A DNA stretch of 64,000 nucleotides, taken from positions 3,366 to 67,365 of the forward strand of contig CAYGXQ010000005.1 in the NCBI GenBank assembly GCA_964354025.1. The letters run 5' to 3'. Under the pieces are notes generated by a model. That model was not told the DNA's origin. It saw only the letters and a list, made by a program, of their open reading frames with translations, and searched no databases. Every line of letters starts with the position of its first letter. Positions within the stretch are counted from its first letter, which is position 1. The DNA comes from an uncultured Gammaproteobacteria bacterium (GTDB lineage: Bacteria > Patescibacteriota > Microgenomatia > 2-02-FULL-39-11). This document shows, in pieces, positions 900 to 60,917 of this stretch. The position numbers and the translations under genes were made by a program.

Positions 900-1060
900 A
901 ATATTCCGGTATTCCGTATTCCGGAACTATTCCGTATTCCGAGACGGTCCTTTAATTGATTGTCACCACCTTCCGGCTTCCGGAAATGAAGAAGTTTCAA
1001 TTATCGCCTGACGGATGACATCAAACGCGGACTGAAGTCCGCTACTCCGGAAATCTATAC
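900..1060. promoter_or_regulatory. Candidate regulatory array upstream of gene 1130-1957
   Basis: Five TATTCCG heptamers (902-941), TTCCGGAA palindromes (919-926, 978-985, similar at 1045-1052) and hairpin GCGGACT-GAA-AGTCCGC (1027-1042) seen directly. Confidence 0.35.
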
Positions 1061-9220: not shown

Positions 9221-9276
9221 TTAGCGTTTAGCTCCTAGCGTTTAGCGTTTCGTTTATAACTAGACGCTAGACGCTA
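9221..9276. repeat. Composite heptamer repeat: (TAGCGTT)n half followed by (CTAGACG)n half
   Basis: tagcgtttagctcctagcgtttagcgttt...ctagacgctagacgcta. Copies of the same family lie at 37037-37107 (inverted) and, split, at 37781-37813 plus 37959-37990. Confidence 0.7.
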
Positions 9277-10554
9277 TTTAAATAATTTTCTAAATCTTTC
9301 TTCTTGTTTATACGGTCCTATTATAGCAAGGTTCAGCCGGTTTTGTCCAAAGATATTTTCCGCAACTTCCTGTACTTGGGCCGAAGTCACTTTATCAATT
9401 TTCTCCATAATTTCCTGCGGAGTGCGGATATTTTTTTCCAAAAGTTCGGCCGTCCCGAAAAGCGAAGCGACATTGTGACTGTCTTCCAGTTCGAGAGTCA
9501 GTCTGCCTTTGAGATATTCTTTGGCTTTCCCCAATTCCTCTTCGGAAACCAGTTTATCAGCCATTTTTTGGTATTCGCCAATAATTACTTTGATCGCCTC
9601 ATCAATCCGGCCCACATCCACTCCCGCCTGGGTGACGAAATTACCAACGTCTGTGTATTTTTCTGTAGCTGACCGGACATAATAAGCCAGTCCCCTCTTC
9701 TCCCGCACTTCGATGAAAAGCCGGCTTGACATCCCGCCGCCCAAAACGCTGGTCAAAACTCCCAGAGCGTATCTTTCCGGATGAACCAAAGGATAAGCCC
9801 GCACTCCCAGACAAAGATGCGCCTGTTGGGTGTCTTTGTATTGGACCAGCAATCCCGGTACCTTCTGACCATCATCAACAGTTTCCGCTTTCTCCACTTT
9901 CCTCTTCCCCCACTCCCCAAAATATTTTTTCATTAAATTTATAATTTGTAATTTATAATTTGTAATTTTGTTAATACCTCCCGCAATCACCACCACCGTA
10001 TTCCCCGGCGTATACAATCTGTCCATATAACTAACGAAGTCTTTTCTTTTCACTGACGAAATCACTTCTTTTTTTCCGATAATGTCTCTGCCCAATTTCG
10101 TGTCGCCGTAAAGGAGATTTTCGTAAAGGTCGCCCACTTTTCTCATCGGCAAGTCCTCATACATATTGTATTCTTCGATAATGACGCCTTTTTCTTTAGC
10201 AATCTCTTTTTCATCCAATCGGGAGTGTAACAAAATATCTGATAATATATCAATCAATAAAGGAAGATGTTTCACTGCTGCTTTTATATAATATCCGGTA
10301 TGATCTTTGCTGGTGAAAGCATTGGACTCACCGCCGATGCCATCAACGATCGAGGAAATTTCAAGAGCCGTCGGCCGTTTCTTTGTTCCCTTGAAAGCCA
10401 TGTGTTCAAGAAAGTGCGACAATCCATTGATCCCCTTTTCCTCGAAGCGTGAACCAGCACCGACCAAAACCAAAACCGTCACCGACTCCACCGAAGGCAT
10501 GGGAACAGTGATCAGCCGGAGACCGTTAGTGAGGGTATGTGTTTGGTAGTTCAT
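9274..10554 (-). CDS. M16 (pitrilysin/insulinase) family zinc peptidase
   Basis: Inverted zinc motif HFLEHMAFKGT (HxxEH); length 426 aa; carries an in-frame heptamer tract at 9935-9975. Confidence 0.85.
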   Translation of the reverse strand: MNYQTHTLTNGLRLITVPMPSVESVTVLVLVGAGSRFEEKGINGLSHFLEHMAFKGTKKRPTALEISSIVDGIGGESNAFTSKDHTGYYIKAAVKHLPLLIDILSDILLHSRLDEKEIAKEKGVIIEEYNMYEDLPMRKVGDLYENLLYGDTKLGRDIIGKKEVISSVKRKDFVSYMDRLYTPGNTVVVIAGGINKITNYKLQIINLMKKYFGEWGKRKVEKAETVDDGQKVPGLLVQYKDTQQAHLCLGVRAYPLVHPERYALGVLTSVLGGGMSSRLFIEVREKRGLAYYVRSATEKYTDVGNFVTQAGVDVGRIDEAIKVIIGEYQKMADKLVSEEELGKAKEYLKGRLTLELEDSHNVASLFGTAELLEKNIRTPQEIMEKIDKVTSAQVQEVAENIFGQNRLNLAIIGPYKQEERFRKLFK

Positions 10555-35838: not shown

Positions 35839-35926
35839 GAGGTCATCTTAACAAGTGAAAAATATCATGTCAATGTATAAAAATCCAATGGTAAAATAAA
35901 GAGAAAAATGGTAAAATAAAATTTCT

Positions 35927-35964
35927 GAGATTGCTTCTCCCGACTAAGTCGGGATCGCAATGAC
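35927..35964. mobile_element. Partial copy (one arm) of the MITE-like GTCATTGCGA-TIR element
   Basis: gagattgcttctcccgactaagtcgggatcgcaatgac matches the reverse complement of the left half of the 37851-37944 element, with the 16 bp palindrome replaced by a short hairpin. Confidence 0.5.
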
Positions 35965-35988
35965 AGATAACCGCGTAACTACTAATAT

Positions 35989-37002
35989 ATGATTACTTTT
36001 CTCAAAAAACGCTATAAGTTGATCCTCATCATCGCCCTCCTGGTTTTCGGCGGCTTTCTCTGCTACCGTAATTTCTTCGCGGCCAAAAACGGCAAGAAAG
36101 TCGACTCCGTCAAAGTCAAAAGAGGCACGCTTGAGGAAATACTGACCATTTCAGGCCAAGTTGAAGCCGACGAGAAAGTAACTCTCCGTTTCCAAACCTC
36201 CGGCAGACTGGCCTGGGTAGGGGTCAAGGAAGGCGACTACGTCAAAAAGTATCAAAGTATCGCCTCGCTGGATCAGCGCGAGATGAAAATGAACCTCGAT
36301 AAATACCTCAATACCTACATGAGCGAAAGATGGGATTTCGAGCAGACCAGAGATGATTATAAAGACACGTTCATTACCGACAAAATCAAGCGGATCAAGG
36401 AACAAACCCAGTTTGACCTGAATAATACGGTGACCGATGTTGAGATCAAAAACCTGGCCATCGAACTGGCCAATATGTTTACCCCGATCGAAGGGATAGT
36501 CACCCGGGTGGCTTCCCCTTACGCCGGGGTGAATGTCACCGCTACCCAGGCGGAATTTGACATCGTCAATCCCAAGACGGTCTATTTTTCTGCCCTGGCC
36601 GACCAGACGGAAGTGACCGAACTCTTCGACGGCAAGCCCGGCGAACTGACTCTCGATGCTTATCCGGAATCAACCTTCAGCGGAACGATCAAGAACATCT
36701 CTTTTAACCCCAAAAGCGGCGAAACCGGCACTGTCTACGCGGTGAAGTTTCTTTTTGACGGCGACAATACCGGCTACAAATACCGGTTGGGCATGGCCGG
36801 TGATTTGAGCTTTGTCACCAAAAGAAAAGAAGACGCCTTATACCTGCCGACAAAATTTGTCAAAGATGATAAATCAAAAAAATATGTCCAAATAAAGAAA
36901 AACGGCCAGACGGAAAAAGTTTACGTGGAAACCGGCATGGAGACGGACAGCAGTATCGAGATTACGAAAGGCGTGACGGAAGGAACGATTGTTTTCGATT
37001 AA
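35989..37002 (+). CDS. Efflux periplasmic adaptor (HlyD/MacA family)
   Basis: N-terminal TM; biotin-lipoyl-like and beta-barrel pattern; first gene of an ABC transporter operon. Confidence 0.7.
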   Translation: MITFLKKRYKLILIIALLVFGGFLCYRNFFAAKNGKKVDSVKVKRGTLEEILTISGQVEADEKVTLRFQTSGRLAWVGVKEGDYVKKYQSIASLDQREMKMNLDKYLNTYMSERWDFEQTRDDYKDTFITDKIKRIKEQTQFDLNNTVTDVEIKNLAIELANMFTPIEGIVTRVASPYAGVNVTATQAEFDIVNPKTVYFSALADQTEVTELFDGKPGELTLDAYPESTFSGTIKNISFNPKSGETGTVYAVKFLFDGDNTGYKYRLGMAGDLSFVTKRKEDALYLPTKFVKDDKSKKYVQIKKNGQTEKVYVETGMETDSSIEITKGVTEGTIVFD

Positions 37003-37036
37003 ATACCACACTCTATAAACATAAGAAAATATAAGA

Positions 37037-37107
37037 GCGTCTAGCGTCTAGATACTAGCGTCTAGTTAAGAAAAACTAAACGCTAAACGCTAGAAGCTAA
37101 ACGCTAA
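37037..37107. repeat. Composite heptamer repeat (inverted orientation) immediately upstream of the ABC ATPase gene
   Basis: Reverse complement equals ttagcgtttagcttctagcgtttagcgtttagttttt..ctagacgctagtatctagacgc. Confidence 0.7.
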
Positions 37108-37111
37108 ATTC

Positions 37112-37783
37112 ATGATACAACTCCAACACATCCATAAAGAATACAAGCTTGACGGGGATGTTTTCGTCGCCCTTAAAGACATCAATTTAAAAATCTCAGA
37201 CGGCGATTTTACGGCCATCGTCGGGCCATCCGGCTGCGGCAAATCCACCCTCATGCACATCATCGGCCTTTTGGATAATCCCTCAAGCGGAAAAATCACC
37301 ATTGACGGTAAAGATGTTTCTAAAATCACCGACGACGACCTATCCAAACTCCGCAACGAATTTGTCGGCTTTGTTTTCCAGCAGTTTAACCTGATAAATA
37401 AACTGACGGTAGCTGAAAATATTCTCCTGCCGACAATTTACTGCCGCAAAAAACTGGATTTTGTCCCCCAGCAAAGAGCCATGGAGCTGATGAAACGCTT
37501 TGAAATAGACTCCAAAGCCAAATCATACCCCAACAAGCTATCAGGCGGTCAGCAGCAGCGCGTCGCCATCGCCCGGGCTCTCATCAATAAGCCGAAACTT
37601 ATCCTGGCTGATGAGCCGACCGGAAACTTAGACTCCAAAACCGGTGAAAAAATCCTTGCTCTTTTGAAGGAGCTAAACGGCCACGACAAAATCACCATCG
37701 TCATGGTCACCCACGACAACCACATCGCCGAAAGGGCTAAAACTCACATCCATGTGCTGGATGGGGAGATCGTTGATAATTAG
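37112..37783 (+). CDS. ABC transporter ATP-binding protein (MacB/LolD type)
   Basis: Walker [10 protein letters not shown]; signature [15 protein letters not shown]; Walker [12 protein letters not shown]. Confidence 0.9.
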
Positions 37784-37813
37784 CGTTTAGCTTCTAGCGT
37801 TTAGCGTTTAGTT
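37781..37813. repeat. Composite heptamer repeat, first half (TAGCGTT)n. A perfect 33 bp inverted repeat of 37074-37106
   Basis: tagcgtttagcttctagcgtttagcgtttagtt; overlaps the stop codon of the ATPase gene. Confidence 0.7.
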
Positions 37814-37850
37814 AATGACAGTAGTTATGCAATGAATATTGATTTAGATT

Positions 37851-37944
37851 GTCATTGCGATCCCGAGTCCGCCAGCTGGCGGATCGAGGGAGAAGCAATC
37901 CCGTCCGAGATTGCCACGGCCAGTCAGACTGGCCTCGCAATGAC
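37851..37944. mobile_element. MITE-like element with 10 bp terminal inverted repeats GTCATTGCGA / TCGCAATGAC, carrying the 16 bp palindrome TCCGCCAGCTGGCGGA
   Basis: TIRs at 37851-37860 and 37935-37944; palindrome at 37868-37883; internal gaagcaatc / gattgcc inverted repeat. Homologous copy at 55998-56078. Confidence 0.6.
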
Positions 37945-37958
37945 ATAGAATAGCATGA

Positions 37959-37990
37959 CTAGACGCTAGCTTCTAGACGCTAGACGCTAA
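37959..37990. repeat. Composite heptamer repeat, second half (CTAGACG)n, separated from the first half by the MITE-like insertion
   Basis: ctagacgctagcttctagacgctagacgctaa. Confidence 0.65.
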
Positions 37991-37993
37991 TTT

Positions 37994-39202
37994 ATGACTT
38001 ACTTTATCTTCATCTTCAAATCCGCTCTTGAGGATTTCAGAAGGAACAAAATCAGGACTTTTCTGACTTCTCTCGGCATCCTCATCGGAGTTTCTTCCGT
38101 CGTCCTTCTCATCTCTTTTGGCTTAGGGCTAAAACAATATATCAAAAACCAGTTTGAATCCTTAGGCACCAACCTTATCATCATCATGCCGGGGAAAATA
38201 CTGGAAGGCGGCAGTTTCAGCTCAGGGGGCGGCGGCATCGGTGGCATCCGCTTTGACGAAAAAGATATTTTGGCTATCAGGAAAGTGAAAAATACCGCTT
38301 ATGTCGTCCCTGTTTACACCAAATCGGTAACCGTTTCAGGCGAAGGAAAGTCGGAAACCGGTACTCTTTACGCCACCACCGCAGACATCTTCCCTATCCG
38401 CAATCTTGAAGTCGAATACGGAAGCTTTTTTGATAAAAACGATGTCGAGAAAAGGAGCAAAAAACTGGTCATCGGGCCGAAACTGGCGGAAAAAGTTTTT
38501 GGCAGTAGCGATGATGCCCTCGGCAAAATCGTCAAGATCGAAAAACAGGCTTTCACTGTTGGCGGCATCTTAAAAAGTAAAGGCGGCGGCGGCTTCGGCG
38601 GGCCCGACTTTGACACTTTCGTCTATATGCCTTATAAATCTGCCCTGGCTTTTAATCCGGAAAAGCAATTCTATACCATCCTCATCAAAGCAAACAACGA
38701 AGAAGCCATCCCGCAGGTAAAAGACGACCTGAAAACCGCTCTTTTGAAAACCTACAAAGAAGACGACTTTTCCGTTGTCGAACAGACGGAGATCTTAAAC
38801 GCCGTCGCCTCAATCTTTGCCATCCTAAATACAGTTTTGATAGCTATCGCCGCAATCTCCCTGGTGGTGGGAGGTATCGGCATCATGAATATCATGTATG
38901 TCTCAGTCATTGAAAGAACCAGGGAAATCGGTATCCGACGGGCTATGGGAGCAACCGGCCGGGATGTGCTAATGCAATTTATTTTGGAAGCGGTCATCCT
39001 CTCTCTCATCGGCGGGCTGATGGGACTGGGATTATCTTTTCTGGTTGTCCTTCTCATCCAACCGTTTTTCCCGGCTTATGTGGACACCACCGCCGTCGCC
39101 ATCGCCATCGGCGTCTCTTCGGGGATCGGCATCATCTTCGGCGTGTTTCCGGCAAAAAGAGCGTCTGATCTGTCTCCGATTGAGGCGATAAGATATGAAT
39201 AA
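37994..39202 (+). CDS. ABC transporter permease, FtsX/MacB family
   Basis: N-terminal TM, large periplasmic domain and three C-terminal TMs; conserved GIMNIMYVSV.ERTREIG.RRA.GA segment. Confidence 0.85.
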   Translation: MTYFIFIFKSALEDFRRNKIRTFLTSLGILIGVSSVVLLISFGLGLKQYIKNQFESLGTNLIIIMPGKILEGGSFSSGGGGIGGIRFDEKDILAIRKVKNTAYVVPVYTKSVTVSGEGKSETGTLYATTADIFPIRNLEVEYGSFFDKNDVEKRSKKLVIGPKLAEKVFGSSDDALGKIVKIEKQAFTVGGILKSKGGGGFGGPDFDTFVYMPYKSALAFNPEKQFYTILIKANNEEAIPQVKDDLKTALLKTYKEDDFSVVEQTEILNAVASIFAILNTVLIAIAAISLVVGGIGIMNIMYVSVIERTREIGIRRAMGATGRDVLMQFILEAVILSLIGGLMGLGLSFLVVLLIQPFFPAYVDTTAVAIAIGVSSGIGIIFGVFPAKRASDLSPIEAIRYE

Positions 39203-39253
39203 GCAACCACTTCATTTCCGGAAGGTGATGACAATCTCTCGAAGGACCGTCCC

Positions 39254-40633
39254 CTATAGGTTCATAGAAAATAAAAATAGCTCAACGGGTATTAAACAAA
39301 GGTTTTTCCTCTGCAGATAATCATTTTTCGTAACAACAGTAAGCTTTTCTTTAGGAAATTTATCCATAAACCAGGAAAACTCGGCAGGATTAACGCGGTT
39401 TTGGAATTTTACCTCAAAATAAGACAGTTTCTGTTTATCCCTACCGATAAAATCAATCTCTCTGTCTTTTAACCGGCCGTAATAAAGATTTGGGAAGATA
39501 CGCCATAAATGCATCGCTGTCAGATTTTCAACTAAATGTGAAAGAAAAACCGGTTCAGTCAGTTTTTTCCTGGTAAACGAATACTGTTCATCGCGCATGT
39601 TTTCAATCTTCGCTAAAAAGCTCATGAGGATAAACGTGTCATTAAAATAAAACTTGTGGTTTTTCTTATAATCAGCCTTCCTTTGCGCCAGTTCAAAATA
39701 ATCCAGGTTGAAAACGGAAAACATTTGAGTCAGAAGATCAACATATTCAACCGCGCTCACATAAGAGGACAGACCGGCATTTTTGGCTAATTCGTAATAT
39801 GAAACCGGTGTCGTCAGCGAGCTGATCATTTTGGCAAAAATCAAATCGGCGGTTTTTTCCTGTTTGCCGAACTTATGCAAGTCGCCTATCACCCAGGAAG
39901 TGTAAATATCGGCAATCTCCGAGCTGATAAATCCTTTCTCGTAAAATTCGTTGATGACTGCCGGGAAGCCGCCGGTAAGAAGATAATCTTTAAAAAGGGC
40001 TTTTAATTTCGGCAGATGCAGCTTTTCCCGGCCCTTTTGCCAATCCCTGCTTTCAGGATAAACCATCTTCGCGAAATCCTTAAACAATAAAGGCAGAAAA
40101 ACAATGTCTTTTTCTTTGATATTGCCCCGCCTGCCGGGAAGCCTTTCTGAGGAAAACTTCAAATCAACGGTTGATGAGCCGGTCAGGAAGAAAAGCGTTT
40201 TTTTGCCCCACTGGCTTTCCGCGAAATCCTTGATTGTTCTTTGCCATTCTTTTACAAACGAGATTTCATCCAGAAAAACATAGTGAAAATCAGCCGTTTC
40301 TCCAAATTCCTGAAAATACGCATTGATGATATCAGAAAGCTCAAGAAAGGAAGAAACCGTGTTCAGGGAATAATAAAAAATGCCTTTGGGATTGACTTTA
40401 TCCTCCAGAAGAAGTTTTTTTATTATCTGCTTTGAGAGAGTGGTTTTACCTATTTGTCTAGGTCCGCGCAAAGTCATGACACCCGGCTCGTTTTCCGGAA
40501 AAGCGGAAAGAAGAGGGTGGATGAACTGAAATTTGCGGCCGGCGACTTCTTTAAGCTTATCGTCAGCCAAAATCAGCTCTTTCTCTCCCCACCAGGGATT
40601 TTTCTGGTATAAGGATAAAATATCAGGCGACAT
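39254..40633 (-). CDS. AAA+ ATPase with a DUF4143-like C-terminal region (second paralog)
   Basis: Walker A LRGPRQIGKTTL; Walker B VFLDEISF. Confidence 0.75.
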   Translation of the reverse strand: MSPDILSLYQKNPWWGEKELILADDKLKEVAGRKFQFIHPLLSAFPENEPGVMTLRGPRQIGKTTLSKQIIKKLLLEDKVNPKGIFYYSLNTVSSFLELSDIINAYFQEFGETADFHYVFLDEISFVKEWQRTIKDFAESQWGKKTLFFLTGSSTVDLKFSSERLPGRRGNIKEKDIVFLPLLFKDFAKMVYPESRDWQKGREKLHLPKLKALFKDYLLTGGFPAVINEFYEKGFISSEIADIYTSWVIGDLHKFGKQEKTADLIFAKMISSLTTPVSYYELAKNAGLSSYVSAVEYVDLLTQMFSVFNLDYFELAQRKADYKKNHKFYFNDTFILMSFLAKIENMRDEQYSFTRKKLTEPVFLSHLVENLTAMHLWRIFPNLYYGRLKDREIDFIGRDKQKLSYFEVKFQNRVNPAEFSWFMDKFPKEKLTVVTKNDYLQRKNLCLIPVELFLFSMNL

Positions 40634-40774
40634 ATATAACTATCACTTATGCTTTTATCACAAAAAAGCATAATTGTCAAATAGGTAATATTGAGGAGGT
40701 TATATCAACATCTCAAAGGACTGTCCCCTATTTGTACTATGTCCCCTATTTGTACTATTTGTTTATTATTCTCC

Positions 40775-41257
40775 TTAATCATTTAACCATGTACAATTTG
40801 GTGAGGTAGCACCGTACTTTTTTCCACATTCATTTCTAAAAAATTGATAAATTCCATCTTTTTCTTCCCGCTTAAGGGGCTTTCCCTCTATGCCTTCCAC
40901 CTTAGATATAACTGATTTACAATTTGCAACTGTATTATTCCCATTCAAGCAATTTATTCCTGCCTCTTTGAAGTTCTTTATTATCTCTGCTGTTTGTCCA
41001 AGCTGATTACCTGCGTCTTGTATTGCACCACCCGCTGTTTGACCTGCCTGTACGATTTGTTGTCCTGCTTGTTGTACCGGAGTGCTCGGAGAAGAAGTAG
41101 AAGATCCTCCCCCACAGGCTATAAGCCCACTATCGGTTTTCCCGCTTCTCACTGGATGATCACCAACATCACATGATTTTGCAAAATATTTTATTGGTTC
41201 TTCTGCTGGTGGTGCTGGAGCACAACTGCTTAGTATACTTGCTGCCAATCCGGCCAC
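40775..41257 (-). CDS. Putative secreted protein or lipoprotein (GTG start) overlapping the 3' end of toxin gene 1; candidate immunity protein, or the result of a frameshift
   Basis: ..AASILSSC lipobox-like sequence followed by a Cys-containing Gly/Gln-rich region; 89 nt out-of-frame overlap with 41169-41900. Confidence 0.4.
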   Translation of the reverse strand: MAGLAASILSSCAPAPPAEEPIKYFAKSCDVGDHPVRSGKTDSGLIACGGGSSTSSPSTPVQQAGQQIVQAGQTAGGAIQDAGNQLGQTAEIIKNFKEAGINCLNGNNTVANCKSVISKVEGIEGKPLKREEKDGIYQFFRNECGKKYGATSPNCTWLND

Positions 41258-41900
41258 TACTAATGTTGTACCAAAATTTAAAACTGCTTAATGTTGCACT
41301 GCCTAGGATCACCGCGGCGCTCACCAAGGCATCCTTTCCAGTAATTGCTGCTCCTTTGCTTCCTGTTCTCTCAAAAAATTTAGGATAAGATTCCTGCGCT
41401 TCTTTACCTACCCATATACCCTGTCCGGTATTATTTCTTTTTCTGCAGTTTTCCTCTTCTCCATAAGCACATTCCCAATTTCCTGAAGGATCATTTCTTA
41501 TAATGGGATTTCCTTCGACGTAGGCAAACCGGTTTGGCGAGTCCGCCAGCTGGCGGACGGAGTCCGCGGAAACGAAACGGGAAAGAACAGGATCGTAGTA
41601 GCGGGCGTTATAGTAAGAAAGAGTTGTTTTATCATCTTTAATTTGACCAGTGTAGGCACGTTCAGTGGCGGGATTTGAGGAATTTGGGGAACCGTAGGGA
41701 GAATATTTGGATTGGGAGATATTGTTTCCTTTATCATCCGAGACAGCAATCACTGATCCCAGATTGTCGGTATGAATATAGTAAGTAGATTCGGTGTAGG
41801 AAGCGTGAACAGGATGAGCAATGATAAATGATAAATTATAAATTACAAATGAAATTACAAATGACAGAATGCAAAATTTAGAATTTAGTAATTTAAACAT
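41169..41900 (-). CDS. Sec-signal + RHS-core + short variable tip protein (polymorphic toxin cassette 1)
   Basis: N-terminal hydrophobic signal ending AHPVHA/SY; RHS core motifs YYIHTDNLGSVIAVSDDKGNN...YNARYYDPVLSRFVSADSV...NPIIRNDPSGN. The last ~30 codons look like read-through in a wrong frame. Confidence 0.7.
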   Translation of the reverse strand: MFKLLNSKFCILSFVISFVIYNLSFIIAHPVHASYTESTYYIHTDNLGSVIAVSDDKGNNISQSKYSPYGSPNSSNPATERAYTGQIKDDKTTLSYYNARYYDPVLSRFVSADSVRQLADSPNRFAYVEGNPIIRNDPSGNWECAYGEEENCRKRNNTGQGIWVGKEAQESYPKFFERTGSKGAAITGKDALVSAAVILGSATLSSFKFWYNISSGRIGSKYTKQLCSSTTSRRTNKIFCKIM

Positions 41901-41938
41901 TTAATTTAGCATTTATAATTTATAATTTGTAATTTATT
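41822..41938. repeat. A/T-rich heptanucleotide-periodic tract spanning the start codon and signal peptide of toxin gene 1
   Basis: gataaat gataaat tataaat tacaaat ... tataatt tataatt tgtaatt; 7 nt periodicity over about 115 nt. Confidence 0.7.
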
Positions 41939-41947
41939 AACAGTATG

Positions 41948-42397
41948 TCACGAAGACAGAAGGGGTGTCAATTTTTCGATCAATTCCTTCGGGGAAACGA
42001 TGTGGAAATCCCTGATCTTTTTCCGCAGGATCAATAAATGTTTTTTATCCAAAGTCACCAAATAATCTGCTTCATTTTCACTGCAGGAAGCCAAAACATG
42101 GGAATCTCCCCTGTCGATAACTATTTTGTCGAATAAGGAAATAATTGATTGCTCGGGCGCTTCGGCTATTTTGGAAAATATCTTCGTGACTTCTGTTTTT
42201 GCCTTTTGGGGTGTCTGTTTTATCTTCGGCGCCCGGCGGCATACTTCATCAAGAATAATCTCGCTGATCAAACCGCTGATCTTCCCCTTCTTCACCCACG
42301 ACAGCAGTTTTCCCGACCCGCCTGAAGGAGAATGAAGTCCCGCCAGAATCACCGAAGCATTGAAAAAAACTACCGGAGCATGACTGTGTCGTCTCAT
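41948..42397 (-). CDS. PIN-domain toxin (VapC-like)
   Basis: N-terminal VVFFNASVILAGL; C-terminal DSHVLASCSENEADYLVTLDKKHL pattern; start abuts the stop of the AbrB-type gene. Confidence 0.65.
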   Translation of the reverse strand: MRRHSHAPVVFFNASVILAGLHSPSGGSGKLLSWVKKGKISGLISEIILDEVCRRAPKIKQTPQKAKTEVTKIFSKIAEAPEQSIISLFDKIVIDRGDSHVLASCSENEADYLVTLDKKHLLILRKKIRDFHIVSPKELIEKLTPLLSS

Positions 42398-42666
42398 TAT
42401 AATAAATGTTTTTTCTTTAAGATTTTCGAGTCTTCCCGGTCAAGCGCCAGAAACCCGTTTATTTCTTTACCGGAATAACTTCTTACCGGATAAGAAAGAG
42501 TCCTGACCGGCTCCAATATCAGTCTTCCCCGGTCTTTCCTCACCCTCACCAATCCTCTTTCCTCCAAACCAATCTCATCCCGCAGTTTTTTAGGGATGGT
42601 CAGAAGTCCCTTAGGCTGGACTTTGATGATTTCTTCAAAAGGAATAGTCTGCATAATTTTCTGCAA
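42397..42666 (-). CDS. AbrB/SpoVT/MazE-type antitoxin
   Basis: QPKGLLTIPKKLRDEIGL swapped-hairpin motif. Confidence 0.65.
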   Translation of the reverse strand: MQKIMQTIPFEEIIKVQPKGLLTIPKKLRDEIGLEERGLVRVRKDRGRLILEPVRTLSYPVRSYSGKEINGFLALDREDSKILKKKHLL

Positions 42667-42802
42667 TTCTAACTTTCTATATTATAGAATATTTGGATAA
42701 ATGTCAACTTCTATAAGCGAACGCAGACTAAAGTCTGCTCTTCCAAATAAAATCGCGTTTGAAGCCATCCGGCAGCCGACGAAGAAAAGGCAACGAAGAA
42801 GT

Positions 42803-43090
42803 TCATACTCCTGCCAGTTGAGGATGTTTATCGCCAATTTTCTCCATAACCCACATCCGGATAAGTTGTGTCGGGCCTAAACCTTTCTTTTTTGCCTGAT
42901 TTCTGACGTCATTCAGAGTATCAGCGTCCAGACGGATGTTGAGTGTTTCTGACAGGTTTCTCGCAAACTTAACTTTTGCGGATTTACCATTATCCCACGC
43001 TTTATCAAAGTGTTTTTCCCAATAATCAGCTTCTTTTGTGCGGTTCTTAAATACCGATATATCAGGCATAGATGGTTTGACTTTATTCAT
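42803..43090 (-). CDS. brnA: BrnA-like antitoxin
   Basis: C-terminal NIRLDADTLNDVRNQAKKKGLGPTQLIRMWVMEKI RHH-like tail; 4 nt overlap with the upstream BrnT. Confidence 0.65.
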   Translation of the reverse strand: MNKVKPSMPDISVFKNRTKEADYWEKHFDKAWDNGKSAKVKFARNLSETLNIRLDADTLNDVRNQAKKKGLGPTQLIRMWVMEKIGDKHPQLAGV

Positions 43091-43353
43091 GATTTAACCT
43101 CCTTTATAAATGCTGTAATAACATAATATGTTCCGTTACTGTAAGGTCGCAGATTCCGATCTTCAGGTGATAATACAATAGCGAGTTGCTTACCTCTCTT
43201 TGTCTTACCGGTGATAAGAATCCTTTTCCGGTAACTTTCCCTGACTTTATGTTTTCCGTGACAAACTTCTTCAATATCTTCCTGTGTAATTCCATGATGA
43301 TTCATGTGCTTTCTATTCCAATCATCCCAAATCAGTCTCTTTACCACGATCAT
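43087..43353 (-). CDS. brnT: BrnT-like (DUF497) ribonuclease toxin
   Basis: IWDDWNRKHMNHHGITQEDIEEV...YYVITAF pattern. Confidence 0.65.
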   Translation of the reverse strand: MIVVKRLIWDDWNRKHMNHHGITQEDIEEVCHGKHKVRESYRKRILITGKTKRGKQLAIVLSPEDRNLRPYSNGTYYVITAFIKEVKS

Positions 43354-43538
43354 AAGTTATCAACATTGTAACACATTGTGCTACAAAGTCAATCCCGGGA
43401 TAGCAGATAAAAAAAGTGAAGCAGGCCGAACTGATTGAGGAAAAAGTGACGAAATAACTTCATTTCCGGAAGGTGGTGGCAATCTCTCAAAGGACCCCTA
43501 TTTCTTTTTCTATTTTTTCCAATATTGTCATGTTTATG

Positions 43539-44789
43539 TTATGGAGTCACCAATGTATTTATCCATAACTTGGTTAAATTGGGATAATGAAGATTATATT
43601 TTTCTGCTGTACCAATATTCGCGACCCATTTACGCCAAACATCATTTCTCCCACTATAACTAAAAATCCATGATTGTCCTTGATGTATCTCTGGCATAAA
43701 CCAACCTGTAAGTTGGCAGGCCGCACTTTCCTTTATGTCTTGTTGGTAATCAGAAATGGAATTATCAATATAATAAGAACCATAATCTTCTTGCGGTCCA
43801 CTCTTTTGTTTATTCGATTTGGGAGGAATCGCCAACTTACCATAAATATTTTCCCAATATACAGAATCTTTTGTTGCTGCTTCTTGGTAGCTTTCTTCAT
43901 TAAAATTCTTCAACATAAGATAATGCGTTGCTTCATGAACAAACTCGTGTTCCTGCTGCCATTGAGGTAGTGTAAATGTTCGTGGATCCAAAAAAACTGA
44001 TGAAGGGAAATATTCACCTTCTCTTTCGAAACTATTATTTAAATAATTTTCGCCTATATCTGTTCGATTAATATACAATCCCTTCAGGATATTTGGATTA
44101 TGGGTTATATATATTATTCTTTCGATGCTTTTTTCAATCGATTTAATTTCATTTGTACGCCATGCCCACATACTTCGATAGTATGGATTATTTTTATAAC
44201 CTGGCCATCTATCCGGATTATTTATATCTTCTTCTTTTATTTCCTGGTCTACATTATAAGCAAAGGAAACACCATATTTTTTAGAAATTTTTTGTGCTAA
44301 TTGGAATGATTCATTTGTATCCTTTACATAAGATTCAAATTGTAAATCTATACCTTCATCTGCCCTTTGTCCTCCCGGATCATTCATCATGATCGGATTA
44401 CCACCCACATAGGAGTATCTGTTCAGCTGGTCCGCCAGCTGGCGGACGCTATCAGCCGAAATAAATCTGGATAAAACTGGGTCATAGTACCTCGCGTTAT
44501 AATATGCCAGTTGGGTGTTCTTATCCGCAATTTGACCTGTATATTCTCTTTCAGTTGTAGGTTGTAAGTTGTAGGTTGTAAGTTCATTTCCATATGGAGA
44601 ATACTTGGTTTGTGAGACATTGTTTCCTTTATCATCTGAGACAGCTATCACTGACCCCAGATGATCCTGATGGATATAGTAGGTGGTTTCGGTGTAAGCG
44701 GCGTAGACCGGAGAAATGAATAATCCAATAAACAAATAACCCAATAATCCAATGAATATAACAATGAAACAATGTAGCAATTTATCCAT
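43539..44789 (-). CDS. Sec-signal + RHS-core + HExxH metallopeptidase-like tip (polymorphic toxin cassette 2)
   Basis: Signal peptide; core YYIHQDHLGSVIAVSDDKGNN..YNARYYDPVLSRFISADSVRQLAD..NPIMMNDPGGQ; tip contains HEFVHEATH. Confidence 0.75.
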   Translation of the reverse strand: MDKLLHCFIVIFIGLLGYLFIGLFISPVYAAYTETTYYIHQDHLGSVIAVSDDKGNNVSQTKYSPYGNELTTYNLQPTTEREYTGQIADKNTQLAYYNARYYDPVLSRFISADSVRQLADQLNRYSYVGGNPIMMNDPGGQRADEGIDLQFESYVKDTNESFQLAQKISKKYGVSFAYNVDQEIKEEDINNPDRWPGYKNNPYYRSMWAWRTNEIKSIEKSIERIIYITHNPNILKGLYINRTDIGENYLNNSFEREGEYFPSSVFLDPRTFTLPQWQQEHEFVHEATHYLMLKNFNEESYQEAATKDSVYWENIYGKLAIPPKSNKQKSGPQEDYGSYYIDNSISDYQQDIKESAACQLTGWFMPEIHQGQSWIFSYSGRNDVWRKWVANIGTAEKYNLHYPNLTKLWINTLVTP

Positions 44790-44790
44790 A
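44712..44790. repeat. Heptamer-periodic tract spanning the start and signal peptide of toxin gene 2
   Basis: aataatc caataaa caaataa cccaata atccaat gaatata acaatga aacaatg tagcaat. Confidence 0.6.
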
Positions 44791-44791
44791 T

Positions 44792-44846
44792 GGATTAGCG
44801 GATTTTAATCCGCGCAAATTAACGCGCAATAAATTGCGCTATTCCA
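44792..44846. promoter_or_regulatory. Two-palindrome operator-like module upstream of toxin gene 2
   Basis: GCGGATTTTAATCCGC (44798-44813) and GCGCAATAAATTGCGC (44824-44839). The same module recurs at 46782-46869 and, reordered, at 48160-48248. Confidence 0.5.
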
Positions 44847-44858
44847 ATTTGTAATCTA

Positions 44859-45170
44859 ATGCCATTGTGGCATGAAAACGGAAGAACTGTCAAACCGGGT
44901 TTGTCTATACTTCCCTTCTCTGCTACAATAATAATCACTATGGCTCATATCTGGGACTACGATATCAACGAACTTAAAAAGACAGAGCAAGGCAGGCTCC
45001 TTATCCTTGAACGGATGATCAATTTCGGTCCCGACAAGAGAGAAAAGATCAGTCTTTCACAAGTTAAAAAAAATTGGGATAAATTGCATCTGTTCCCGAG
45101 TGCCAAAAAGCTTCTGGAACTTCTGATATGGGGAAAATATCTGTCCTCACCGGAAAACAAAAGATCGTAA
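44859..45170 (+). CDS. Small 'WDYD' protein (probable true start at MAHIWDYD), partner of the decayed NTase gene
   Basis: Homologous to 32911-33159. Confidence 0.4.
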   Translation: MPLWHENGRTVKPGLSILPFSATIIITMAHIWDYDINELKKTEQGRLLILERMINFGPDKREKISLSQVKKNWDKLHLFPSAKKLLELLIWGKYLSSPENKRS

Positions 45171-45478
45171 TAGATGAGATAAAGAAGGAAAAAAACCTGG
45201 CTTCCCGATTCTATCTCACGGGCGGGACCGCTCTTTCGGCATTTCATCTTCAGCACCGCTATTCTGATGATCTGGATCTTTTCAGTGATGATGCCTTTGA
45301 TAAGGAAAAAATCGTTAATTTCATCAAGAGACTGGCCACTCAAAGATTTTTTCCGGAAGCAGGCGGAACTGATAGGGAAAAAGGTGACAAGATAAACTTC
45401 ATAAGGTGTCAAGCCGGTACACCTGGAAGGTGTACGAGTGGACATCCGGCAGGCCGCAAAGAATCTAGAGGAAAATAA
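45128..45478 (+). pseudogene. Truncated or frameshifted GGTAL nucleotidyltransferase (AbiEii-like) gene
   Basis: N-terminal FYLTGGTALSAFHLQHRYSDDLDLFSDD matches 32241-32918; after about 80 aa the sequence diverges into low-complexity residues and stops early. Confidence 0.5.
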
Positions 45479-45521
45479 GATCGTATATAATAAGGGAAAT
45501 AAACTACTTCATTTGGAAATT

Positions 45522-54976: not shown

Positions 54977-55043
54977 ATATTTGGATTTTGTATTAATTGA
55001 GGCAGGCGGTAAGAATTATACTTAACCAATTATCATAATGCAA

Positions 55044-55107
55044 CGCTATCCTCGCCGCCATCGTCATCGCCCTCATCTCCAGTATCCTCAACGTGATCTT
55101 CCAGTAA
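55044..55107 (+). repeat. Duplicated 3' end of the holin-family gene (last ~18 codons plus stop), near-identical to 52880-52943
   Basis: 54 nt identical (gccgccatcgtcatcgccctcatctccagtatcctcaacgtgatcttccagtaa), plus a similar 10 nt before it. Confidence 0.75.
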
Positions 55108-55708: not shown

Positions 55709-55796
55709 ATTCCATGTCTCCTCCTTCGGCATGGCCATCCTCGCCTCCATCGTCATCGCTATCCTCTCCAGCATCGTGAATGTGATTTTCCAGTAA
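55709..55796 (+). repeat. Second, diverged copy of the holin-gene 3' end (about 85 percent identity to 52856-52943)
   Basis: ttccatgtctcctccttcggcatggccatcctcgcctccatcgtcatcgctatcctctccagcatcgtgaatgtgattttccagtaa. Confidence 0.7.
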
Positions 55797-55997
55797 TGGA
55801 TTTCCTGTGTGGATTGTATATATAGGCCTATATCTTTTTTGATTTTTATGGTATAATCCTCATCACTATAAGGTATTCTCTCAAATCCGTTCTTCAAGCG
55901 ATCTGATCTTGGTGGAATATCTTATTTTTTTGCTCTTTAAAAAGACAGCAAGCCGTACCGCAGGAAACCGGAATAGAAGGTAGTAATACTTTATGCC

Positions 55998-56078
55998 GTC
56001 ATTGCGAGCAAAACGAAGTGAAGCGAAGCAATCTCTTATAAATTTAGATTGCCGCGTCGCTACGCTCCTCGCAATGAC
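55998..56078. mobile_element. MITE-like element, second full copy (TIR GTCATTGCGA / TCGCAATGAC)
   Basis: TIRs at 55998-56007 and 56069-56078; internal gaagcaatc..agattgcc as in the 37851-37944 copy. Confidence 0.6.
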
Positions 56079-56262
56079 AATGAAGAAGGTTTTTATATAA
56101 GTTCTAAACTTACTATCTCCTACTTCGGTTTTCTGCGTGTAATATTACCCCTTAAAGGAGAAAGGGTGTGGTCACCAAATTTAAACCACAACGCAACGAT
56201 ACTAAAAAGTCGCAATCACCGAATGCGGCTATACAAAAATCCGAAAAGAGAAAGAGGAAAAA

Positions 56263-58841: not shown

Positions 58842-60917
58842 TTACATCTTCTCTACCGTTTCGATCCCGAGGATGAAAAGACCTCTTTTGATAAGGTTTG
58901 CCGTAGTTTGAGTCAGAACCAGACGGAAATCGGATTCCAATATCGTGTGTTTCTGGTAAAAGAGGCTGTAGCTTTGCGCCAGCTCAAAAAGATAAGCACA
59001 GAGAAGGTGCGGCGAGAAAGCCGCGGCCGCCTCGGCGACCACCTCCGGGAAGCGGTAGAAAAGACGGAGAAGTGATAACTCTTCAGTATTAGGTATTAGG
59101 TATTTGGTATTAAGTATTTTTTTGTTTTCTTCTTTTATACCTGATACCTGATACCTGATACCTGATACCTTCTCAGCTTTTCTCATCACGCTCATACACC
59201 TCGCGTAGGCATACATGAGGTACGGCCCGCTGTCGCCTTCGAAGGAAACTGACTTGCCGAAGTCGAAGACGATGTCATTGCCGATGTTGTTTTTGAGAAG
59301 GGCGTATCTGATGGCTCCGAGGGCCACTTTTTCCGCGATTTCTCCAATTTCGGTTCCCCCTTCTGCTTTTCTGTCTGTTTTTGCGATAATCTCCAAAACT
59401 CTTTTTTTAGCCTCCTCCAGAAGCCACTCGAAGGTGATGACGTTGCCCGAGCGCGAAGACATCTTGCCTTCCGGCAGCCTAACCATGCCGTGGGCGATGT
59501 GATAGGCTTTCTCCCCCAATTCCGGCTCGATCTTTTTCATGGCCGCCTTCACCACTTTGTAATATTCGTCTATTTCTTTACCGAAAACATTAATTGATAA
59601 ATCGTATTTGAAATCTTGATATTTGGCCATAGCCAATCCCAAGTCTTTAGCCTCATAGGTAGGCAGACCGAGTTTATTGACAAAAACCCTGGTATGCAGG
59701 CCGTCCTGTTCACCCCGGTAGACGACTCCCCCTTCGCTTTTTTCCAAAACGCCCAGCTTCAAACCCTTTTCCACCAGCTTCATCCCGTACTCGCCCACCC
59801 ACGACTCCGGATAATAGCCGTCGAACTTCGTTCCCAGCCTTTTGTAGATCGTCTCAAAATATTCCAGGCTCCACTTCAAACCTGCCCCGTAGACCTCCCT
59901 GACCTCCTCCAGACGGTCTTCTTTACCATGAACATACTGTTTATAGTCAATGATCGGCTGCCAGCCTTTGTCTTTCTTCAAAATCTCCTGCGCGGCCACG
60001 TAAATAAGGGAATTGATCTCCTTAACCTCTTCCGCAACCTTCTTATCCTCATCAAACTTTATCGTCCCCAAAGCATAACCTTCCCCAAGCAGTTTCTGCC
60101 TTTCGGATATGGGTAACTTCCCAAGCTCGTGAATGTATTTTCTTAATTCTTCTAAATATTCTTTCCCTTTCAGAATTTGTAATTTGTCATTTGTAATTTG
60201 TAATTTAGCTAAAAGTCCGTATAGACTTTTAGCGATATGCATCCCTACATCTCCGTAAAAATCTCCCCGCCAGACGGTTGCTCCGCAGGCTTCAAACAGC
60301 CTGGCGATAGCCTCGCCGATGAAGTTGGAATACATATGCCCGAGGTGAAACTCCTTAAAAGGGTTGGGGTCTGTATATTCAACGGCAATTTTCTTTCCCG
60401 TCATTTGGGCTGTTATGACCGGATATTTCATATCTAGCACTCTCTCCATCTGACTGATAATGCATGGGGTAGCCACAACCAGATTTAAGAAGCCACAGCC
60501 TGCAATTGATACATTCTCCAGGATACTTTTTGGAGAAATAGTCAGATCCGAAGGTACATAACTATCAGCTTTAACTGCTATCGTTTGATCTTGTCCTATA
60601 TATTCATCTATTTTTCGTTTTAGCTTCTCCGCCAACTCAATCGGCTTCATTTTTAGTCTTTTAGCCATGATCATGGCGATATTAGAAGAATAGTCCCCAT
60701 AACCTTTATTTATAGGATGTTCGATAAAAATAGCGGAAAAAGGGATTTTTTCGCCTGTTTCCCCCAAAACCTCCCCTACGGCCTGGCGGATGACGCACCG
60801 CAGCTGGAAAGCAAGAGAGTGCGGATCATCGGTGATGATCTTGGGGAATTTCCTTTCTGTTCTCGGATCAATGGCAAATTTCATAATATATCCTGACACG
60901 CTGGGTGACTTTCTCAA
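58842..60917 (-). CDS. argS: Arginine--tRNA ligase (class I)
   Basis: VEYTDPNPFKEFHLGHMYSNFIGEAIARL (HIGH region) and KMSSRSGNVITF (KMSKS region). Long, at 691 aa, with an in-frame heptamer tract at 60174-60206. Confidence 0.9.
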   Translation of the reverse strand: MRKSPSVSGYIMKFAIDPRTERKFPKIITDDPHSLAFQLRCVIRQAVGEVLGETGEKIPFSAIFIEHPINKGYGDYSSNIAMIMAKRLKMKPIELAEKLKRKIDEYIGQDQTIAVKADSYVPSDLTISPKSILENVSIAGCGFLNLVVATPCIISQMERVLDMKYPVITAQMTGKKIAVEYTDPNPFKEFHLGHMYSNFIGEAIARLFEACGATVWRGDFYGDVGMHIAKSLYGLLAKLQITNDKLQILKGKEYLEELRKYIHELGKLPISERQKLLGEGYALGTIKFDEDKKVAEEVKEINSLIYVAAQEILKKDKGWQPIIDYKQYVHGKEDRLEEVREVYGAGLKWSLEYFETIYKRLGTKFDGYYPESWVGEYGMKLVEKGLKLGVLEKSEGGVVYRGEQDGLHTRVFVNKLGLPTYEAKDLGLAMAKYQDFKYDLSINVFGKEIDEYYKVVKAAMKKIEPELGEKAYHIAHGMVRLPEGKMSSRSGNVITFEWLLEEAKKRVLEIIAKTDRKAEGGTEIGEIAEKVALGAIRYALLKNNIGNDIVFDFGKSVSFEGDSGPYLMYAYARCMSVMRKAEKVSGIRYQVSGIKEENKKILNTKYLIPNTEELSLLRLFYRFPEVVAEAAAAFSPHLLCAYLFELAQSYSLFYQKHTILESDFRLVLTQTTANLIKRGLFILGIETVEKM

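Follow-up and report, generated by a model that had tools for sequence, protein, structure and literature searches.

Gene-less heptamer foldbacks around a MacB-type ATPase gene, best read as relatives of S23p-bearing intervening sequences

We analyzed a 64-kb stretch of contig CAYGXQ010000005.1 (64,000 nucleotides in full, hereafter the window), derived from a genome of the candidate phyla radiation (CPR), in which the gene for a MacB-type ABC ATPase lies between two inverted copies of a heptamer repeat, here termed E2 and E3; a third copy, E1, is located elsewhere in the window. We conclude, with a probability of roughly 70%, that this bracket consists of two separate, oppositely oriented insertions of a gene-less foldback of the type found as intervening sequences (IVSs) in 23S rRNA, and that the ATPase gene is a resident of its operon and not cargo. 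Comparison with related genomes establishes, at the level of sequence, that E2 and E3 arose by insertion and belong to a dispersed family of foldbacks, that members bearing an S23p (PF05635) gene exist, and that hairpins turn over rapidly at fixed junctions. E1-E3 are best read as the form of this S23p-bearing, IVS-type family that lacks an open reading frame (ORF) and resides at operon junctions. The finding is real and the bracket is incidental; it does not amount to a switch, a cassette or a terminator.

The foldbacks and their operon

The repeat that makes up E1-E3 is a foldback, in which a T-arm of roughly four TTAGCGT units is followed by a short loop rich in A/T and then by a C-arm of roughly four CTAGACG units, with 2.4-4.7 units per arm and element ends of the form TTAGCG...CGCTAA. 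Exactly three composite copies are present in the window, and all of its matches to the heptamer patterns (10 and 9, as compared to 0.38 and 0.17 expected from shuffles) fall within them. The three copies, and the operon that holds two of them, are as follows.

9221..9276, + strand: E1; T-arm 9221-9250, loop 9251-9259 (9 nt), shortened C-arm 9260-9276
35989..37002, + strand: HlyD/periplasmic-adaptor-like gene, upstream in the same operon; Pfam BSH_RND/YknX_C on orthologues
37003..37035, + strand: spacer from the HlyD stop to E2, 33 nt, with the core CCACACTCTATAAACATAAG
37036..37107, - strand: E2, a foldback without an ORF, in reversed orientation; C-type arm 37036-37065 (AGCGTCT x4.3), loop 37066-37075 (TTAAGAAAAA, 10 nt), T-type arm 37076-37107 (CTAAACG x4.7)
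37112..37783, + strand: MacB-type ABC ATPase, 223 aa (100% match to P0001)
37780..37990, + strand: E3; T-arm 37780-37813, insert-bearing loop 37814-37957 (144 nt), C-arm 37958-37990
37994..39202, + strand: MacB/FtsX permease, downstream in the same operon; MacB_PCD and FtsX on orthologues

E2 ends 4 nt before the ATPase ATG (37112), the ATPase TAG stop codon (37781-37783) lies within the first heptamer of E3, and E3 in turn ends 3 nt before the permease ATG (37994). E1 occupies the junction of the M16 peptidase and ndk genes, where the M16 TAG stop (9274-9276) is inside the element and the ndk ATG lies 4 nt from the T-arm. Because E2 and E3 are oppositely oriented, T-arm facing T-arm, the ATPase gene is enclosed by a perfect inverted repeat, which a repeat search delimits as 37074-37107 and 37780-37813 (34 nt, 100% complementary, 672 nt apart); an outer pair, 37029-37066 and 37958-37995, is complementary at 87% over 38 nt. 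Compared with the reverse complement of the C-arm, the T-arm has one T/C exchange in each heptamer; folding therefore involves G.U pairs in one strand and A.C mismatches in the other. As read from the sequence, stop triplets come at intervals of 7 nt along each arm and on both strands of E1-E3, closing all six frames. Much of this geometry had been anticipated in the original prediction, which described a 33-bp inverted repeat around the ATPase gene (34 nt by our measurement), a start codon 4 nt past the upstream copy and a stop codon inside the downstream copy (confirmed by the ORF coordinates), halves that pair through G-T wobbles, and a single further copy between ndk and the M16 peptidase gene; its nested, MITE-like insertion in the downstream copy also stands, as the 144 nt in E3 contain a structured element that has copies elsewhere. 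An irregular unit, TAGCTTC, is second from the 5' end in both arms of E3 (37780-37813 and 37958-37990), a direct and not a mirror position; the irregular unit of one arm is therefore not paired with that of the other, an arrangement that a simple fold-back duplication would not yield.

The relatives of the ATPase protein belong to Candidatus Gottesmanbacteria and Microgenomates of the CPR, which assigns the source organism to this group. The order and orientation HlyD-ATPase-permease are kept in all eight relatives compared, whether elements are present or not. The two junctions at issue are J1, between the HlyD-like and ATPase genes, and J2, between the ATPase and permease genes; identities in the following list are nucleotide identities of the ATPase gene to the window, unless another reference is named.

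L001, L002 and L003, 68.8-72.0%: J1, an 8-nt or 20-nt overlap or a 20-nt spacer; J2, an ATGA overlap; no element
L010 (Microgenomates PFL108, GCA_022866885.1), 85-86%: J1, TAAATG, empty; J2, another heptamer hairpin, ATTCAAA/TGACAAA ... TTTGTCA/TTTGAAT
L124, 85-86%: J1, TAAATG, empty; J2, hairpin of the L010 type
L125, 99.3% to L010: J1, a direct copy of the L010-type J2 hairpin; J2, hairpin of the L010 type, with the contig end inside it
L126, 84.3%, and about 94% to the L010 group: J1, a third hairpin type; J2, a fourth hairpin type

Since the genes of distant relatives overlap or have only a short spacer at these junctions, and J1 is empty in two close relatives, E2 and E3 are insertions and the ATPase gene is resident. 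The junctions of L010, L124, L125 and L126 carry four heptamer hairpin types other than E2/E3, and these hairpins extend from just past the stop codon to just before the start codon. L125 has gained its J2 hairpin as a copy at J1, although it is 99.3% identical to L010 in the ATPase gene. The comparison indicates that the junction sites and the architecture of the hairpins stay constant and that hairpins of one sequence family are replaced by those of another within short times. At J1, the spacer core CCACACTCTATAAACATAAG (20 nt) is common only to the window and L126, and in L126 another heptamer hairpin then follows it. E1 has an orthologue upstream of ndk in L010, with a different loop and a C-arm of 4.3 units as compared to 2.4 in the window; judged by this orthologous copy, E1 is older than the E2 and E3 insertions. 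In L125 the ATPase gene sits between two direct copies of one 113-nt heptamer hairpin (710-831 and 1504-1554), and the contig terminates in the second, an instance of heptamer hairpins breaking assemblies that parallels the bracket of the window in another orientation and with another family.

The original prediction had also considered that the repeats could mark the boundaries of an invertible or mobilised segment, in which case the 34-bp inverted repeats would bound a phase-variable or mobile unit carrying the ATPase gene. A perfect 34-bp inverted repeat 672 bp apart, with a second pair at 87%, has the form expected for such a segment, and arms of the family can bound an inserted unit, as they bracket a PF05635 gene in L010 that is absent from L124. 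However, the ATPase gene has the same position and orientation in 8/8 relatives, in which the flanking elements are absent or replaced, and in L125 the copies of another hairpin on either side of the gene are direct and not inverted. A scan of neighbouring ORFs in the window (AbiE, PIN/CopG toxin-antitoxin, AAA-DUF4143 and RHS-like) revealed neither a recombinase nor a transposase, and inversion would turn an essential transporter subunit antisense within its operon. We therefore consider an invertible or mobilised segment extremely improbable. In our preferred reading, E2 and E3 would have inserted separately and in opposite orientations at the two tight junctions of the operon, such that the elements move and the gene stays.

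A dispersed family with S23p-bearing members

Copies of the family in other genomes were collected in a genome-collection scan with TAGCGTYTAGCGTYTAG, and the counts given for it refer to the matches listed. Its informative matches were the multi-unit arrays, the hairpins and the close relative L010 only. Minimum free energy folding of the pattern loci was too noisy, as arrays pair with themselves, and direct matching of arms with manual curation was used instead. E2, E3, two loci of L010 and a Levyibacteriota contig (L025) have one and the same 32-nt T-arm, down to the irregular TAGCTTC in second place, and related copies were recovered from Curtissbacteria, another Gottesmanbacterium, Omnitrophota and others. 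Identical arms across loci and genomes indicate that this is a family and not chance. A metagenome scan with a family-specific 22-mer returned only a telomere-like TTTAGGG satellite, a scan of viral contigs returned short arrays only, and a search of published text for the repeat sequences returned nothing relevant.

Several members of the family, and foldbacks built from other heptamers, carry a gene in their loop. In L010, a 123-aa gene whose product matches Pfam PF05635 (E 2e-36) lies between inverted arms of the E1-E3 family, and the whole unit of ~525 nt is absent from the 94%-identical L124. Another Gottesmanbacterium (L022) has the arms AGCGTCTAGCGTCTAGGAGCTAGCGTCTAG and CTAAACGCTAGACGCTATTAACTAAACGCTAA, which agree with those of E2 at 27/30 and 28/32 positions, and where E2 has a loop of 10 nt they enclose a 377-nt loop that is almost exactly a 375-nt S23p-like ORF; this ORF is 68% identical to the L010 protein by tblastn and scores E 4.2e-47 against a PF05635-family profile. 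PF05635 genes between arms of the same or other heptamers are also present in L089 (Levyibacteriota), L056 (Gemmatimonadales) and L076. In total, a profile search detected a PF05635 gene in 5/119 heptamer-pattern loci among the matches listed, and four of these five genes lie no more than 5 nt from the array. The gene-bearing relatives encode PF05635/TIGR02436 four-helix-bundle proteins and no recognised transposase.

For a test unbiased by the repeats, PLSDB plasmids were searched with the L010 protein, which yielded 31 records, mostly from Nostoc, Calothrix and other cyanobacteria, with Riemerella, Gemmatirosa and Azospirillum in addition. Ten regions were read, from Cyanobacteria, Bacteroidota, Alphaproteobacteria and Gemmatimonadota. 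Inverted heptamer arrays flank the PF05635 gene on both sides in six of the ten; of the remaining four genes, one lies between long direct heptamer arrays, two have an array on a single side, and the last has arrays of period 8. The settings of these plasmid genes include cas6|cas4, cas10|cmr3 and HlyD-like|ABC ATPase junctions. Heptamer-flanked PF05635 genes at those junctions were seen in L144 (Pseudanabaena), L149 (Picosynechococcus), L150 (Anabaena 90) and L147 (Calothrix). PF05635-type genes have been noticed inside cas loci before (PMC3936711), and the reported association may reflect selfish insertion rather than a CRISPR function; "23S_rRNA_IVP" genes in cas operons are probably insertions and not cas-associated functions.

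The closest published counterpart is the IVS in the 23S rRNA of Coxiella burnetii, a selfish element of 428 nt whose terminal inverted repeats pair into a 28-bp stem and which contains an S23p ORF; in it, two to three tandem GACAGAT heptamers, their number dependent on the strain, stand just before the S23p ATG and RNase III cuts at the first repeat (PMC4990558). It has also been published that rRNA insertions in the CPR occasionally encode 23S_rRNA_IVP proteins. We found no report that links S23p genes generally with flanking heptamer arrays or with ORF-less foldbacks at operon junctions, in a literature search whose coverage was incomplete and does not prove novelty. The association of S23p genes with inverted heptamer arrays appears to be a general one that is apparently undescribed.

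Heptamer arrays are not confined to E1-E3. The window contains 14 arrays of period 7, as compared to 0-3 for each other period from 4 to 12, and the distant relatives L001 and L003 contain none. Several of the arrays form further foldbacks, built in the same way from other sequences.

41820..41937: AATGATA/AAATTAC ... AATTTAG/AATTTGT, at the 5' end of an RHS-like paralogue
49248..49329: AAATTAT x4.6 ... AATTTGT x3.7, spanning the start of an RHS-like paralogue and the part of it that encodes the signal peptide
59086..59170: GTATTAG x4.7, loop, ATACCTG x4.9, with one T/C exchange per unit (z -8.8), in frame within the arginyl-tRNA synthetase (ArgRS) gene

The ArgRS hairpin encodes KVSGIRYQVSGIKEENKKILNTKYLIPNT, which lies in the linker between the catalytic and DALR domains of the enzyme (gene 58842-60917); a second array in the gene (60174-60206) encodes KLQITNDKLQIL, and another (9936-9968) is in frame within the M16 peptidase gene. 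These in-gene arrays are read as peptides with a period of 7 aa (KVSGIRYQVSGI..., KLQITNDKLQIL and NKITNYKLQIINL). ArgRS homologues, which range from 554 to 982 aa, have different low-complexity inserts at the same two sites; the hairpin arms are perfectly homogeneous in the window, a decayed version is present in L128 (62% aa identity), and the sister genome L127 has another insert. These decayed or different inserts indicate slippage-type homogenisation on top of dispersal. The ArgRS homologue P0125 contains RVYPVRNSSDG at two separate sites. Among the RHS-like paralogues, the same position after a conserved PYG motif, a variable loop, holds AGTTGTA/GGTTGTA in one (44553-44584) and CTTTACG/CTTAACG in another (46549-46579).

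Arrays of this kind might arise and change in place, by polymerase slippage on 7-nt units together with template switching, and require no transposition-like copying. According to Mrazek 2007, as cited in PMC4692102 and PMC4679880, heptanucleotides rank first in over-representation among the long simple repeats of many bacteria, and slippage linked to the polymerase footprint has been proposed. This explanation suits the differing unit numbers of orthologues (2.4 and 4.3 in the C-arm of E1), the homogeneous and decayed versions of the ArgRS arms, and the different heptamers at one position of the RHS-like paralogues (44553 and 46549). It does not suit the recurrence of one 32-nt arm, irregular unit included, at unlinked loci and across genomes, the 113-nt hairpin duplicated intact from J2 to J1 in L125, or the presence and absence of whole gene-containing units between 94%-identical genomes. 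Slippage accounts for changes in array length and for homogenisation and not for dispersal, and we judge it quite unlikely as the origin of E1-E3, for which insertion of a dispersed foldback remains our preferred reading.

Transcript folding, start codons and weighing of the evidence

E1-E3 are predicted to fold as stable stems. The E2 hairpin reaches -39.3 kcal/mol in the antisense strand, with its G.U pairs, as compared to -31.2 kcal/mol in the mRNA sense, with A.C mismatches (z -5.3), and the whole E3 unit reaches -99.2 kcal/mol (z -9.7). Hairpins are predicted on both strands (z -2.9 to -6.5), and the stems of the 30-34-nt arms have predicted energies of -25 to -39 kcal/mol, which at most 1/200 shuffles equalled. 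Folding of the whole transcript favours pairing of E2 with E3 (T:T, 34 perfect bp, -56.3 kcal/mol; C:C, -53.5 kcal/mol) over the local hairpins (-29.0 and -39.6 kcal/mol); such pairing would loop out the ATPase cistron on a stalk of ~64 bp, resembling rRNA processing stalks. No Rfam family was matched by the hairpins or by the element nested in E3, and in the window the search found only a tRNA and no rRNA.

Stable stems between genes could also be generic intrinsic terminators or transcriptional insulators at gene ends. Promoter and terminator consensus scans, however, gave no match within E1-E3, and a U-tract is absent from every copy. The elements are located inside operons whose genes overlap in relatives, copies track start codons and not gene ends, and only 3 of the ~47 genes in the window have a copy. 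A role as terminator or insulator is very unlikely. The original prediction had proposed a REP-like terminator/insulator family; a dispersed, palindromic, REP/MITE-like repeat family it is, and the part concerning termination and insulation finds no support, as there is no U-tract and copies stand at gene starts.

Under the preferred reading, the elements would be transcribed within the operon mRNA and form long stems of 30-34 bp, either locally or by pairing of E2 with E3. RNase III processing is established for IVSs and for rRNA or T7 transcripts, and by analogy the stems are expected to be RNase III substrates. Their tolerance at junctions could rest on the stop codons in all six frames and on folding that would keep the upstream stop near the downstream start. 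A further idea, that folding restores the spacing between a Shine-Dalgarno (SD) sequence and the AUG, was dropped, since SD sites are rarely used in the source organism: an SD-like motif precedes only ~8/47 putative gene starts in the window, and most are preceded by A/T-rich sequence. Translation initiation in the source organism thus appears to be largely SD-independent.

The position of the hairpins has a different possible explanation, namely that they are selected, cis-acting intercistronic RNA stems that serve translational coupling or RNase III processing, and that any heptamer hairpin suffices with its sequence left free. In the case of coupling, a ribosome on the upstream gene would stop at the 5' base of the stem, melt it, and free the start codon at its 3' base. 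E1 and E3 have the corresponding layout, with the upstream stop in the first heptamer and the downstream ATG 3-4 nt past the last, and a J2 hairpin of some sequence is present in 5/5 close relatives. Moreover, 12/16 family copies among the matches listed end no more than 11 nt from the ATG that opens an ORF of 100 aa or more, as compared to 4.5% of intergenic positions in those loci (binomial p ~3e-10, somewhat inflated by one orthologous pair). The rarity of SD sites bears on coupling, the preferred E2:E3 fold would set the ATPase cistron on its rRNA-like stalk, and TAACTGA heptamers, which stop 1 nt short of start codons, have been proposed to act in translation (MacGregor 2015). On the other hand, the more distant relatives do without a hairpin and have overlapping genes, L010 and L124 have an empty J1, and the stop codon upstream of E2, at 33 nt, is too far off for a terminating ribosome to melt the stem. 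A hairpin of the same kind is also present in frame within the essential ArgRS gene, where coupling is impossible; covariation is minimal; and E2 and E3 differ in orientation, and hence in the strength of their mRNA stems. We consider selected cis-acting stems an unlikely primary explanation; it is compatible with a selfish origin and later co-option and does not strictly exclude the insertion reading.

Several observations weigh against reading E1-E3 as gene-less insertions of an S23p-bearing, IVS-type family. The profile search found no PF05635 gene in the 64-kb window, no role of S23p in mobility has been demonstrated, and according to the Coxiella study S23p is probably not even expressed there (PMC4990558). 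A known transposase partner of the family was not found among the ORFs scanned. A target-site duplication was not established, as comparison of filled and empty sites allows TA or AT, which is inseparable from the element ends. Single matches to TAGCGTYTAGCGTYTAG are near chance (an estimated ~280 in 596 Gb), hit counts by phylum therefore mean little, and part of the similarity between genomes could be convergent given the low complexity of the arms. Covariation among family copies supports only 2/23 pairs, which is weak support for an RNA structure. Finally, the start-codon association (12/16) and the occupation of J2 in all close relatives could mean that the hairpin is selected and not merely tolerated, and the orientation that places CTAAACG next to the ATG is the commoner one (~9 vs 2-3 independent cases), a bias that is suggestive only and not significant without orthologous copies.

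A broader conjecture, which we hold tentatively and regard as rather improbable in its full extent, is that S23p genes between inverted heptamer arrays constitute a pan-bacterial selfish family that inserts into transcribed DNA, be it rRNA helices, operon junctions or ORFs. Its foldbacks and solo arrays would then explain much of the heptamer excess in bacteria (STRR, TAACTGA and GGGAATC); S23p, a pentameric relative of Avd, an accessory protein of diversity-generating retroelements, might bind the arrays and promote their copying or maintenance; and in SD-poor CPR genomes the elements might also act as swappable RNase III or coupling modules. The locus itself connects three decades-old puzzles: the over-representation of heptanucleotides, the role of rRNA IVSs and S23p, and the arrays just upstream of start codons. 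The connection is drawn because the same heptamer arms occur with and without the S23p gene, because S23p genes chosen irrespective of repeats are usually flanked by inverted heptamer arrays, and because hairpins are gained, duplicated and exchanged at junctions. For the source genome, the results suggest that heptamer foldbacks of the IVS type, without an ORF, have colonised operon junctions and the interior of genes, and they carry a warning for annotation, as heptamer hairpins split or extend ORFs in CPR genomes and break assemblies.

The loop of E3 holds an element of its own, with two further copies in the window.

37822..37945, + strand: nested element; AGTAGTTATGC ... GTCATTGCGA, two variable inner hairpins flanking GAAGCAATC/AGATTGCC, then TCGCAATGAC
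55997..56079, + strand: second full copy, by alignment
35925..35965, - strand: half copy, ending 4 nt upstream of the HlyD-like ATG

The nested element is predicted to fold at -53.6 kcal/mol (z -7.0). A related sequence adjoins a heptamer array in a Nitrospinota contig (L027), and nesting in hairpin loops is also seen in L010 and in Saccharibacteria hairpins, which fits the known tendency of hairpin loops to attract insertions. Short G+C-rich palindrome families, TCCGCCAGCTGGCGGA, GCGGATTTTAATCCGC and GCGCAATAAATTGCGC, recur around the RHS-like genes (37868-37883, 41542-41557, 44431-44446 and 46816-46831; 44791-44814, 46785-46808 and 48226-48249; 44823-44838 and others), and one of these families forms an inner hairpin of the nested element.

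Downstream of the operon, a 7.7-kb island on the opposite strand (39203-46916) parts two FtsX/MacB permease genes (37994..39202 and 46917..48146) that are adjacent in L001-L003; it contains an AAA-DUF4143 gene, PIN/CopG toxin-antitoxin genes and three or four RHS-like paralogues. A dispersed repeat of ~40 nt, ACTTCATTTCCGGAAGGTGrTGrCAATCTCTCrAAGGACC, occurs at 39209-39248, 43457-43496, 946-976 (reverse) and 40683-40722, with one copy directly 3' of the permease stop and another adjoining a (TATTCCG)n array at 902-941. An 87-nt repeat is present three times at 78-85% identity (52857-52943, 55021-55107 and 55710-55796), its first copy being the 3' end of a holin-family gene (52608..52943).

Comparison with known systems

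E1-E3 share features with several classes of repeat. They are unlike intrinsic terminators, since no site with a stem and a U-tract overlaps any of them. Like invertons, inverted repeats flank the ATPase segment (34 nt at 100% and 38 nt at 87%), but there is no recombinase among the neighbours scanned and only one orientation in 8/8 related assemblies. Eukaryotic foldback (FB) transposons have inverted arms made of short tandem sub-repeats around a variable loop that sometimes contains genes. The arms of tandem sub-repeats and the variable loop of E1-E3 resemble this design, whereas FB transposons are much larger, eukaryotic and associated with a transposase, and no homology is implied. Rickettsia palindromic elements are reportedly tolerated in frame inside essential protein genes, much as heptamer hairpins and arrays of the window lie in frame inside the ArgRS and M16 peptidase genes; they differ in sequence, host and the heptamer sub-structure, and E1-E3 themselves are intergenic and closed in six frames.

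The loops of repetitive extragenic palindromic (REP) sequences are hot spots for nested insertion (IS1397/ISKpn1), a likeness to the insert in the loop of E3. REP, BIME and REPIN sequences and bacterial MITEs (miniature inverted-repeat transposable elements) are short, non-coding, dispersed, imperfect palindromes with presence/absence polymorphism (PMC3184786, PMC2229807), as are E1-E3, whose dispersal amounts to three copies in 64 kb and further copies in other CPR genomes; like MITEs, they have terminal inverted repeats. Unlike REP sequences and MITEs, E1-E3 have no GTAG head and no RAYT or insertion sequence transposase partner among the ORFs scanned, their arms are tandem heptamers, and their gene-bearing relative encodes a four-helix-bundle protein and not a transposase.

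The heptanucleotide repeats described as STRR in cyanobacteria (Mazel 1990), TAACTGA in Beggiatoaceae (MacGregor 2015) and GGGAATC in Xanthomonas (Rehm 2015) have the same period of 7 and intergenic location. As in the E1-E3 family, they often end a few nucleotides from a start codon without an SD sequence, as TAACTGA arrays do at a distance of 1 nt, vary in length, and have a function that is unexplained; convergent (inverted) pairs of heptamers are common in the case of GGGAATC, with 70-75 pairs per genome (Rehm 2015). Those reports differ in treating the arrays as simple repeats and possible protein-binding sites or G-quadruplexes, and none ties them to S23p genes or to foldbacks with defined arms.

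The closest resemblance in our reading is to the IVSs of 23S rRNA in Coxiella, Leptospira, Salmonella and others. These IVSs lie in helix 25 or 45 of the rRNA, whereas E1-E3 lie between protein genes, and related hairpins also within them; furthermore, the loops of E1-E3 (9, 10 and 144 nt) lack an S23p ORF. Many rRNA IVSs have no ORF either. Both groups have terminal inverted repeats that form a long stem, which in E1-E3 is built from arms of 30-34 nt, and tandem heptamers whose number varies between strains, as it does between the window and L010 in the C-arm of E1. In both, full-length members carry an S23p ORF in the loop, and the full-length member related to E1-E3 carries it between arms like those of E2. 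Like IVSs, the foldbacks have short forms without an ORF and are sporadic among close strains, and IVSs are themselves regarded as selfish elements whose mode of mobility is obscure.

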